Position numbers and translations under genes: made by a program. Below are positions 55,401 through 57,529 of a stretch of DNA of 64,000 bases, piece by piece; the first letter of the stretch is position 1; the number at the start of each line of letters is the position of its first letter. The notes under the pieces are model-generated. The model was not told the origin of the DNA and ran no database searches. It saw nothing but the letters and a program-made list of their open reading frames with translations. The DNA lies in NCBI GenBank assembly GCA_937949725.1, contig CALECT010000017.1:13243-77242 (forward strand), in the 5' to 3' direction. The DNA comes from an uncultured Pseudanabaenaceae cyanobacterium (GTDB taxonomy: Bacteria > Cyanobacteriota > Cyanobacteriia > PCC-9006 > JAAUQQ01).

Positions 55401-57529
55401 CTGGAGGCTATGGCCTCAGTTTATCGGCGGGGAGCTTGACGAGTAATGTTCCGCTCACCAATTTACCCGATGCTCCCGCTCATTTAGATGTCCTGGATGG
55501 AGATGGCCAGAGTACAGTTGTAAACACAGCATTTTCTAATCCGCTATTGGTGGCAGTAACGGATCAGTTTGGCAATGTTGTCCCAGGGGCGATCGTGAAC
55601 TTGAGTTTCCCAGGGACTGGGGCGAATGTCAGTGATAGCTCAACGGGTGGGGCTGTCTCGCTGACAACGGATAGCCTGGGGCAGGCCAGCACCAGCTTTG
55701 TAGCGAATACCGTTGCCGGTTCCTATGGCATTGGCTTATCGACGGGTACTGTGAGCAGCGGTATTAGCCTCACCAATTTGCCTGATGCTCCAGCCGAAGT
55801 GAACTTGCTAGGTGGCAATGAGCAAGTGGCACAGGTGAATACCACTTTTGCGGATGAGTTGCGAGTACAAGTTTTGGATCAGTTTGGCAATGTTATTCCA
55901 GGAGTGACCGTAACCTTTACTGCACCTACAGCAGGACCAAGCTCTGCGGCCAGTGCTGAACTTTCTGCGGTGACGGTAACGACTGATGGGGCGGGTGAGG
56001 GACAAGCCCTAGCGACAGCGAATGGACAAGCCGGAGCCTATCAAGTGGAGGCTGAGGTTGGGATTGCAACTGTGACGTTTGAACTGGAAAATGTTGTAGA
56101 TACGCCTTTACCAGAGTTACCAGAGCCAGAGGAGCTACCGCAAATATCTCTGCCTCCCACTCAAGCTCCCGAGTCCCCCACAGGAGCGCCGAGCGCGCCA
56201 GCTCCCCTAAGTTTGGTAAATACGACTGTGGTTGAGGAGATCGACAGTAGCTTCTCCGCTGCCTATACAGACTATTGGGGGACGCCTGCCTCAAGGGGGG
56301 TGACCGTAGCAGAAACCCGAATGGTCCTCGACAATGCGACAGAGGCCCATGGTGTGAACTCAGCGGTGGTCTATGGTTTGTTTGTCCCCCAGGCTCAAGC
56401 TGCGGATGAAGGGTTTGGAGCAACTCAAGTGGCGAGCATGGCGCTGAATCGCCGAGCTCAAACCGAGGAGCAGCGGGATGATGACCAGTTGATGTTGGTG
56501 TTGGTGCCCAGTAAAGGGCCGCTTGTGCAGCAGTTAGTGAGCGTGACCCGTGAGGAACTGTTGCAACAGGCTCGACTCTTTCGCATGGCGGTGTCGGACC
56601 CCTATGACGAATGGAGCTACAAGCCCTTGGCCCAGCAGATGTATAGCTGGATGTTGGAACCTGTGGAGTCAGAGCTAGAGCGCTTAAAACTCGATAACGT
56701 GATGTATGTGATGGATGCAGGGCTGCGGACCTTGCCCCTCGCGGCGATGATGAAAGAGGATGAGTTTGCCATTGAGCGCTATGGAATTTCTCTGATTCCC
56801 AGTGTTGATTTGCTGGAAACAGATTTTGGAGCTTCGGCTCCATCCTCTCAAATTGTGGCAGCGGGGGCGACGGAGTTTGAGCAGTTAAACGATCTCCCTG
56901 CGGTGGGGTTAGAGTTGGATGTTATTTCTTCACAGGCCATCCCGGAGACCACTCAGCAAAATTCAGTGAATGTGTTGTTCAATGAAGACTTTACTCAGGA
57001 GAATCTGCTTCAGGCACAGCAGGAAGGCCCAGCCAATATGCTTCATCTCGCCACCCACGGTGAGTTTAATGCGGGTGATTTAGGGAGTTCCTATCTGCAG
57101 TTTTGGGATGATCAGCTCACGTTGGATGACATTAGTAAACTGGGTTGGGATGAACTAGAGTTGCTCATTCTCAGCGCTTGCCAAACTGCCATTAGCAGCC
57201 CCGAAGCAGAGCTGGGTTTTGCAGGACTTGCAGCAGCCACCGGCGTTGAGAGTACCATTGGTAGCCTGTGGAGCGTTTCTGACATAGGAACGCTGGGCTT
57301 AATGAGTGAGTTTTATGGACAACTTGCTAAGACTCCCCTACGTTTTGAAGCCTTGCGTCAGGCCCAGATGGCGATGTTGCAGGGAGAGACTCGCTTAACT
57401 AATCAGCAGCTACAGACCGAGCGAGGTGACATTGATTTACCAGAGGAGTGGGATTTACCTGAGTCGGCTGACTTCTCCCATCCTTTCTACTGGTCTGGCT
57501 TTACCCTGGTGGGAAATCCTTGGTGGTAG
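49439..57529 (+). CDS. giant (~2700 aa) two-partner-secretion (TpsA-type) exoprotein. It has an N-terminal filamentous-haemagglutinin TPS domain, a beta-helix of PMP-type repeats, six Big_1 Ig-like repeats, a Pro-rich linker and a C-terminal CHAT (caspase-like) protease domain. The start is set to the Met preceding the signal peptide; the ORF track starts at 49382.
   Basis: Signal peptide [27 protein letters not shown]. TPS (haemagg_act) core …[32 protein letters not shown]…[44 protein letters not shown]…. From residue ~640 to ~1760 there are dozens of DGGAI…F(S/R/Q)NN(R/Q/S)A repeats. Residues ~1620-2240 hold six ~100-aa units (…[24 protein letters not shown]..V…LTTD..GQA….AN…G.Y…). The linker is [34 protein letters not shown]. 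The C-terminal CHAT domain has the His motif [10 protein letters not shown] and the Cys motif LILSACQTA, and ends …[14 protein letters not shown]. Confidence 0.85.
   Translation: [2696 protein letters not shown]
54258..56100 (+). repeat. six tandem ~300-bp coding repeats (Big_1 Ig-like domain units) inside the giant gene
   Basis: Unit starts at ~54258, 54582, 54898, 55192, 55492 and 55807 (spacings 316/294/300/315 nt). Units share long identical nucleotide stretches (for example …GTCGT(C/T)AATAC(T/A)GC(G/T)TTTGC(G/C)AA(T/C)CC…, …ACGGATCAGTTTGG(T/C)AAT…). Confidence 0.8.

Follow-up and report, generated by a model that had tools for sequence, protein, structure and literature searches.

A predicted two-partner secretion protein with a C-terminal CHAT protease module and its DUF928 and CHASE2-GGDEF neighbours in a Pseudanabaenaceae cyanobacterium

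The window analysed here is a 64,000-nucleotide (nt) stretch of contig CALECT010000017.1 from an uncultured Pseudanabaenaceae cyanobacterium. On its forward strand lies gene 1 (window 49439-57529), which, judging from the sequence, encodes a TpsA-type surface protein (two-partner secretion, TPS; type Vb) with a C-terminal CHAT protease module, and gene 1 is followed by a tandem paralog, gene 2. We estimate a probability of about 0.5 that gene 1 encodes a CHAT protease-adhesin of the surface or envelope whose function is linked to a DUF928/CHASE2 cyclic di-GMP (c-di-GMP) sensor, and that this protein is not a toxin. Processing of its own stalk by the protease is the main alternative, and readings of the protein as a toxin or as an inert prodomain are less likely.

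The CHAT module and its catalytic dyad

The mechanical open reading frame (ORF; 49382-57529, + strand) begins with a TTG codon at 49382. The true start of gene 1 is probably the ATG at 49439 (M20 of the ORF), since a protein beginning there has an N-terminus that resembles that of gene 2. Counted from this ATG, the protein has 2,696 amino acids (aa).

The Pfam CHAT profile (PF12770) matched ORF residues 2415-2712 (E = 3.9e-61; 207.5 bits against a cutoff of 24) over profile positions 2-289 of 289, and this core corresponds to window 56624-57517. A preliminary description of this DNA had assigned the C-terminal ~340 aa to CHAT, with 56497 as the start coordinate. That extent needs revision: the conserved folded module is about 390 aa (56339-57526, + strand), and 56497 lies off the codon boundary. 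Homologues spanned 99% of a 396-aa piece covering the module, and AlphaFold modelled this piece as a single compact two-lobed fold (pLDDT 88, pTM 0.90). When the model was searched with Foldseek, the best match was Csx29/TPR-CHAT (E = 9.7e-16 over ~410 columns), and further matches included SAVED-CHAT, the anti-sigma factor DdvA, separase, gingipain RgpB and caspases. As modelled, the module has a caspase/hemoglobinase fold in which a separase-like pseudo-protease lobe is joined to a protease lobe.

The His block, the Cys block and the SLWSVSD motif quoted in the preliminary description are all present in the translation of the ORF. The predicted catalytic His lies in LATHGEF (codon CAC, 57056-57058, + strand; residue 2540 counted from M20, 2559 in the ORF) and the predicted catalytic Cys in LSACQ (codon TGC, 57179-57181, + strand; residues 2581 and 2600, respectively), a distance of 41 residues. 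Both directly follow consecutive beta strands of the model (E234-238 and E275-278, numbered within the 396-aa piece), which is the canonical site of His and Cys in the caspase fold. H236, H240 and C281 of the piece did not vary among 38 aligned relatives. We then extended the comparison to 209 related CHAT modules drawn from genomes plus protein databases: the His was kept in 208 of them and the Cys in all 209, the lone His exception being a 78-aa fragment, and H236, T239, S279, W311 and D315 were also nearly invariant.

PDB sequence searches with the CHAT module and with a 38-sequence profile gave no match at E <= 1. With phmmer at E <= 10, there was a single weak PDB match, 8d9h_E (Sb TPR-CHAT; E = 0.84), in which THGEF aligned on CHGE and SACQT on GACET, and in which the His and Cys of the target are 42 residues apart. 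Because this match is weak, the fold search bore the weight of the dyad argument. The dyad of gene 1 aligned at positions equivalent to H585 and C627, the catalytic dyad of Craspase TPR-CHAT, whose C627A/S mutants are inactive (PMC9729208). Together, the alignments and the confident model confirmed that the predicted dyad is intact and that the module is not degenerate, as the preliminary description had held, and they suggest that the module has peptidase activity.

Export architecture and family

Pfam and NCBIfam matches give the domain architecture of gene 1. A probable signal peptide comes first and is followed by the TPS domain, a PMP beta-helix and five Big_1 domains; a proline-rich linker then leads to CHAT. 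The probable Sec signal peptide (49439-49519, + strand; 27 aa) was read by eye and resembles the N-terminus of gene 2. The TPS secretion domain (49673-50356, + strand; ORF residues 98-325) matched PF05860 (E = 2.6e-34; 119.7 bits, cutoff 33.5) and TIGR01901 (67.6 bits, cutoff 29.1), and it contains an NPNG motif at residue 167 in M20 numbering. It is followed by a putative beta-helical passenger with Chlamydia-PMP-type repeats and a choice-of-anchor Q domain (51299-54250, boundaries approximate, + strand; Pfam Chlam_PMP, E = 1.8e-25), where TIGR01376 and NF041518 matched residues 1570-1623. The NCBIfam matches to the protein comprise adhes_NPXG (a filamentous-hemagglutinin N-terminal domain), POMP_repeat and choice_anch_Q. 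Five Big_1 domains (invasin/intimin-type immunoglobulin, Ig) occupy 54329-56098 (boundaries approximate, + strand), matched by PF02369 in five stretches (E = 1.5e-21) and visible as repeat units in the translation. A flexible proline-rich linker (56099-56206, + strand), which differs in sequence and length among relatives, joins the passenger to CHAT. The stalk ahead of CHAT measures about 2,200 residues.

We found that gene 1 and gene 2 each encode a single cysteine, the catalytic one, in chains of 2,696 and 2,529 aa. A single cysteine was also found in 40 of 109 family representatives, and mean cysteine content was 0.15% in 60 complete TPS-CHAT proteins versus 0.91% in neighbouring genes. 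Type V passengers are unfolded during outer-membrane crossing and are typically cysteine-poor. Since cysteine is scarce across the whole chain, the entire protein, including CHAT, looks built for unfolded export, and a type Vb secretion route is the predicted one.

This architecture belongs to a large family. An HMMER search over 1.84 billion cluster representatives returned 2,648 proteins at E <= 1e-30. Of the 150 best matches, nearly all have 1,000-3,000 residues with the matched region at the extreme C-terminus, and all of the named matches come from filamentous cyanobacteria. An N-terminal TPS domain was present in 109 of 127 long representatives (~86%); most of the 18 that lack it seem N-terminally incomplete, and 13 of the 18 have no initial Met. 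We found no paper on TPS-CHAT proteins, or one tying CHAT to DUF928 or CHASE2, and a literature search for the CHAT domain with TpsA, ShlB or haemagglutinin gave no "CHAT domain" paper among the matches listed. The TPS-CHAT family is very large, annotated in databases and uncharacterised, and it combines two known components, TpsA exoproteins and CHAT proteases.

A tandem paralog with nearly the same protease

Gene 2 (57761-64000, + strand) has a TPS domain, PMP repeats and an anchor-Q domain and is cut by the end of the window. The remainder of the locus is on a public ENA contig (L081), which we reached via a DUF928 protein (P0133) from the homology search. L081 overlaps window 55732-64000 at 99.9% nucleotide identity and extends 11.6 kb beyond it. 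There, full gene 2 (L081 2030-9619) encodes 2,529 aa with its own intact CHAT and ends at window-equivalent 65350. By comparison of the two translations, gene 2 is a tandem paralog that has a different stalk and nearly the same predicted protease. Window 57038-57526 (+ strand) is 95-100% protein-identical to L081 8957-9616 of gene 2 (window-equivalent about 64688-65347), and identity at third codon positions is 57-88% from the His block to the C-terminus versus 25-50% upstream. This pattern points to gene conversion between the catalytic halves and/or strong purifying selection on them.

The same contrast between the two ends of the protein is seen beyond the pair. Between the tandem paralogs, and between the window and its relatives, the C-terminal 450-500 residues are 62-89% identical and the passenger 29-44%. 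By this measure, conservation within the protein is highest at the CHAT end, opposite to the pattern of a polymorphic toxin.

We considered whether the C-terminal part could instead be a regulatory prodomain retained in the periplasm, comparable to the FhaB prodomain or the stalled C-terminal half of CdiA. Such a prodomain would control secretion or folding of the stalk and then be degraded, with CHAT proteolysis secondary or absent. The proline-rich region beside the C-terminal module would suit this explanation, and C-terminal retention is known for FhaB, CdrA (PMC5422565) and CdiA. However, a structural plug would need neither the invariant His/Cys dyad with its H-x-x-T-H, S-A-C and W...D motifs, conserved among the 209 relatives, nor the near-identity of the paralogs' catalytic halves. 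We regard a retained prodomain as very improbable.

The toxin and immunity question

In loci of the contact-dependent growth inhibition (CDI) type, a toxic C-terminal domain is paired with an immunity gene. The preliminary description had argued against such an arrangement from a gap of ~230 bp, empty of small ORFs, between genes 1 and 2. The spacer (57530-57760) is 231 nt long, from the end of the gene 1 stop codon at 57529 to the gene 2 ATG at 57761, and the ORFs inside it are of 21-24 aa only. The same tandem occurs in two orthologous Pseudanabaenaceae loci, L002 (CHAT module 89% identical to that of gene 1; spacer of 193 nt) and L001 (70%; 141 nt), and none of the spacer ORFs is conserved in either. 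Among the window, L002 and L001 we found no conservation of spacer DNA and no shared spacer peptide, the few matches falling in flanking coding sequence. No Rfam family was found in the window or L081. In both spacers, scans for promoters and terminators yielded no excess over shuffled controls, and the spacer between genes 1 and 2 holds no consensus site resembling a terminator or a promoter.

The conclusion that this is no toxin/immunity arrangement stands, and the absence of a small ORF is the weakest argument for it. The case against CDI is stronger because the CHAT end is the most conserved part, because there is no VENN or pretoxin region, and because ~86% of long relatives share the layout that runs from TPS to CHAT. 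Pfam gave no match to a VENN, PT-VENN or DUF637 pretoxin region in gene 1, no VENN-like string occurs in gene 1 or gene 2, and FHA-type repeats were not found in gene 1.

The preliminary description had also allowed for immunity encoded elsewhere, and this found no support. The sole nearby gene of a suitable type is a SUKH-1 (SMI1/KNR4) family gene of 163 aa (45644-46138, - strand), 3.3 kb upstream of gene 1 and beyond leuC and leuD. The SMI1/KNR4 fold is often used by immunity proteins. We rejected this gene as a distant immunity gene, as it has no homologue in 90 related loci. It adjoins a CYTH-domain gene and leuD, with no toxin partner nearby. Across 80 CHAT-centred loci there is no recurrent small co-oriented neighbour of the CHAT gene, and in many of them the next called gene is on the opposite strand. 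Because the spacer ORFs are not conserved, no small neighbour recurs and the SUKH gene has no counterpart, we conclude that there is no immunity gene, either adjacent or apparent.

A toxin need not come with a cassette: CHAT might be delivered on contact into neighbouring bacteria or eukaryotic grazers, with self-protection encoded elsewhere or unneeded. The combination of TPS domain, long stalk and C-terminal enzyme is indeed the layout of CdiA, a SUKH-family gene does lie upstream, and a toxic role has been proposed for caspase-like domains found at the very C-terminus of polymorphic toxins (PMC3482391). The same survey, however, names no caspase peptidase in type V systems and no cyanobacteria as type V toxin hosts (PMC3482391). 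The C-terminus of gene 1 is conserved rather than polymorphic, the pretoxin region is missing, no conserved ORF follows the gene, and the SUKH gene is on the other strand past leuC/leuD. A contact-dependent toxin is thus quite improbable. Judged by its organisation, gene 1 is not a toxin/immunity cassette, and the CDI frame is unsuitable for it.

A role in anti-phage defence was likewise rejected. The PADLOC match is only at the domain level, to the CHAT part of BovA, and we dropped this reading because a protein exported by Sec/TPS cannot reach cytoplasmic phage targets.

The DUF928 and CHASE2 neighbourhood

On L081, gene 2 is followed by two genes that lie outside the window and are co-oriented with genes 1 and 2. 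The first encodes a DUF928 protein of 272 aa (L081 10001-10819; window-equivalent 65732-66550) and the second a CHASE2-GGDEF protein of 571 aa (window-equivalent 66709-68424), a predicted diguanylate cyclase in which the GGEEF site is intact and the topology is that usual for such sensors. A gene for a LysR-type regulator also follows on L081. The order TPS-CHAT, DUF928, CHASE2-GGDEF is kept in nine related loci (L001-L005, L010, L045, L062 and L087), whose CHAT identities range from 89% down to about 40%. Leptolyngbya sp. Heron Island J and Leptothoe sp. PORK10 are culturable relatives that have this order.

When hidden Markov models (HMMs) of the neighbours were run on the 80 CHAT-centred loci, CHASE2 was found in 15 and DUF928 in 14, always within a few genes of CHAT. 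Looking outward from DUF928, CHASE2 was adjacent in six of six look-ups, and TPS-CHAT lay within 10 kb in three of the six. The loci with TPS-CHAT within this distance include Anabaenopsis circularis NIES-21 and Cylindrospermum NIES-4074, where the CHASE2 protein lacks GGDEF and is accompanied by a 98-aa protein and a ParA-like ATPase. Because CHASE2 adjoined DUF928 in every look-up, the two form an obligate pair. TPS-CHAT is a frequent, facultative third partner of this pair, and it is constant in the clade nearest the window. In the literature, we found a CHASE2-DUF928 neighbourhood mentioned only once, in passing, in a survey of WD40 proteins (PMC5587647).

Variants of the neighbourhood were seen in other lineages. 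In Nostocales-type loci (L083, L085, L088, L089 and L090), DUF928 is divergent from a CHASE2 gene of ~560-610 aa without GGDEF, which is followed by a ParA/CbiA-like ATPase; a ~98-aa protein sits between CHASE2 and the ATPase in L083, L085 and L088. TPS-CHAT adjoins this module in some genomes only. In Cylindrospermum NIES-4074, one called gene (L085 1-5574) has glycosyltransferase family 2 matches ahead of TPS, Big_1 and CHAT, and it is either a fusion or a gene-calling merge. In Laspinema / Oscillatoria loci (L034 988-3195, and L028), a 735-aa protein with Peptidase_C14 (caspase) and DUF4384 domains is encoded directly upstream of TPS-CHAT, placing a second caspase-fold protease beside the CHAT exoprotein.

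The DUF928 protein has a signal peptide, a ~95-residue disordered N-terminal region, a confidently predicted Ig-like beta-sandwich and C-terminal helices. Its disordered region carries an invariant G...R-G motif (RGxxxxTLSGGRRG) immediately before an invariant Cys, and L001 has two copies of the RG...GGxRG motif, L067 three. In being multiplied, the motif resembles a linear site for recognition or cleavage. The DUF928 fold search revealed neither a protease-inhibitor fold nor an immunity fold.

A possible link between surface contact and c-di-GMP

These features suggest how the locus could work. The signal peptide and TPS domain would carry the gene 1 product through Sec and then through a TpsB pore encoded elsewhere. 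The cysteine-free PMP beta-helix and the five Ig-like domains would form a long surface stalk, and the flexible proline-rich linker would bear at the C-terminus a catalytically competent cysteine protease of clan CD, similar to separase and Craspase. CHAT would be the conserved working part of the protein and not an exchangeable toxin tip, and it would lie exposed on the cell surface or, in the course of secretion or afterwards, be retained in the periplasm. There it may cut an envelope protein. DUF928 is the favoured substrate, by virtue of its disordered N-terminal region with an invariant Arg/Gly-rich motif, and the stalk itself is the alternative. Such a cut would couple surface contact or adhesion to the c-di-GMP output controlled by CHASE2.

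The gene 1/2 pair, the secreted DUF928 protein and the membrane CHASE2-GGDEF protein are all predicted to face the periplasm or the cell surface. Since gene 2 has its own CHAT and the DUF928/CHASE2-GGDEF pair is conserved, envelope signalling or adhesion control is indicated. Here we infer the activity, location and substrate of CHAT as well as the direction of signalling. An extracellular protease or processing function, which the preliminary description had proposed for gene 1, is plausible.

Precedents exist for the separate parts of this scheme. The periplasmic tail of the TpsA adhesin CdrA is cut by LapG, a periplasmic Cys protease, in a manner controlled by c-di-GMP; another TpsA protein, LepA, is itself a protease (PMC5422565). 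CHASE2-GGDEF enzymes of Leptolyngbya govern gliding and biofilm, and the CHASE2 ligand is unknown (PMC10581220). A more specific version can be drawn up in which the stalk senses contact, CHAT cuts the Arg/Gly tail of DUF928 or frees a peptide from it, and the processed DUF928 acts as a ligand or co-receptor of CHASE2 that sets c-di-GMP, with another output in the ParA-like Nostocales variant. In this full form the scheme is unlikely, and we offer it as a tentative model.

Several observations weigh against a protease-adhesin tied to DUF928/CHASE2. CHASE2/DUF928 accompany only ~19% of TPS-CHAT loci, and three of the six DUF928-CHASE2 pairs have no TPS-CHAT within 10 kb; given this low co-presence, the link is facultative. 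The linkage could also reflect co-regulation by c-di-GMP and not a relation of protease to substrate. The fold search with DUF928 gave generic Ig/FnIII-like matches only. No TpsB gene (ShlB/FhaC, POTRA + Omp85) was found by tblastn or HMM in the 64-kb window or in L081, and a ShlB-type gene adjoins the TPS-CHAT gene in only 6 of 80 related loci. Finally, the linker region upstream of CHAT in 14 TPS-CHAT relatives holds no conserved motif resembling a cis-cleavage site.

This last result also counts against the main alternative, in which CHAT cuts its own linker or stalk in cis, shedding or activating the adhesin, with no separate substrate. One chain would then unite the role that SphB1 has for FHA with the role that LapG has for CdrA, and the neighbouring cyclase would matter only via c-di-GMP control of expression or release. 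The flexible Pro-rich linker lies directly upstream of CHAT, proteolytic maturation is common in TpsA proteins (PMC5422565), and caspase-like domains autoprocess large surface proteins and toxins (PMC3482391). In addition, ~80% of TPS-CHAT loci are without CHASE2/DUF928, and the protease therefore needs a role independent of both. On the other hand, toxin processing peptidases usually precede another effector domain and none is present here, and self-processing alone leaves unexplained the tight co-directional linkage to DUF928/CHASE2-GGDEF in the clade nearest the window. We consider it somewhat unlikely that self-processing is the whole function, and we favour the protease-adhesin that is tied to the DUF928/CHASE2 sensor.

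Comparison with known systems

The CHAT module of gene 1 shares its two-lobed caspase/separase fold and its Pfam family with HetF of Anabaena, Craspase TPR-CHAT/Csx29, SAVED-CHAT, DdvA and separase. Two of these, HetF (PMC9457339) and Craspase (PMC9729208), are proven site-specific regulatory proteases. The characterised CHAT proteases act in or at the cytoplasm, joined to TPR, SAVED or membrane domains, whereas the CHAT of gene 1 is on a Sec/TPS signal and a stalk. In the W...D motif, gene 1 has Asp where Craspase has Ser.

With the TpsA proteins FHA/FhaB, LepA and CdrA, gene 1 shares an N-terminal TPS/NPNG region, a beta-helical cysteine-poor passenger and very large size. Unlike FHA, it has Chlamydia-PMP-type repeats and Big_1 domains in place of FHA repeats. 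It further differs from these TpsA systems in having a CHAT enzyme as its protease, in one chain with the adhesin, and in that no tpsB gene is adjacent. Pfam scans of the locus genes gave no LapG or LapD homologues, and no search was aimed at LapG (C93) or LapD. CdiA-CT/CdiI has in common with gene 1 a TPS domain, a long stalk and an enzymatic C-terminal domain, but gene 1 has no VENN motif, immunity ORF or cdiB, and it is the C-terminus that is conserved and the stalk that varies. Gingipains and clostripain are, like the predicted product of gene 1, extracytoplasmic clan CD proteases with Ig-like or adhesin domains. They are virulence proteases of families C25 and C11 exported by type IX or Sec, and the fold match to RgpB is distant (E about 4e-6). 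The downstream CHASE2-GGDEF neighbour matches Dgc2 of Leptolyngbya boryana, which controls gliding motility and biofilm (PMC10581220), in its layout of CHASE2, transmembrane and GGDEF parts but lacks the PAS/PAC domains of that protein. We found no report tying Dgc2 to DUF928 or TPS-CHAT genes.

Known CHAT proteases such as HetF, Craspase and SAVED-CHAT are cytoplasmic regulatory switches; here, the same enzyme is found on a predicted type V substrate in a family with thousands of members in filamentous cyanobacteria. The constant partner DUF928 and the frequent neighbour TPS-CHAT are concrete, testable candidates for the input of CHASE2. As CHASE2-GGDEF proteins control gliding and biofilm, the locus may be relevant to how filaments perceive a surface or one another. 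Should the protease do no more than trim its own stalk, the family would be a routine addition to the list of TpsA adhesins, and its interest rises if the link between protease, DUF928 and CHASE2 is true.

Other features of the window

An antisense ORF (55926-56843, - strand; 305 aa, ATG start) over the Big_1/CHAT junction has no family match and was taken as spurious; it probably arises as a side effect of the high G+C content of the coding strand. Around the locus, the window is ordinary chromosome, with genes for penicillin-binding protein 1 (PBP1), an ABC1 kinase, sulfite reductase, FtsY, ArgH, histidyl-tRNA synthetase (HisRS) and LeuCD. A class A penicillin-binding protein (16016-18277, - strand), with transglycosylase and transpeptidase domains, carries an N-terminal FHA phosphopeptide-binding domain, and a SpoIIE/PP2C-type phosphatase is encoded at 28805-30232. 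The presence of both hints at control of cell-wall synthesis by Ser/Thr phosphorylation.

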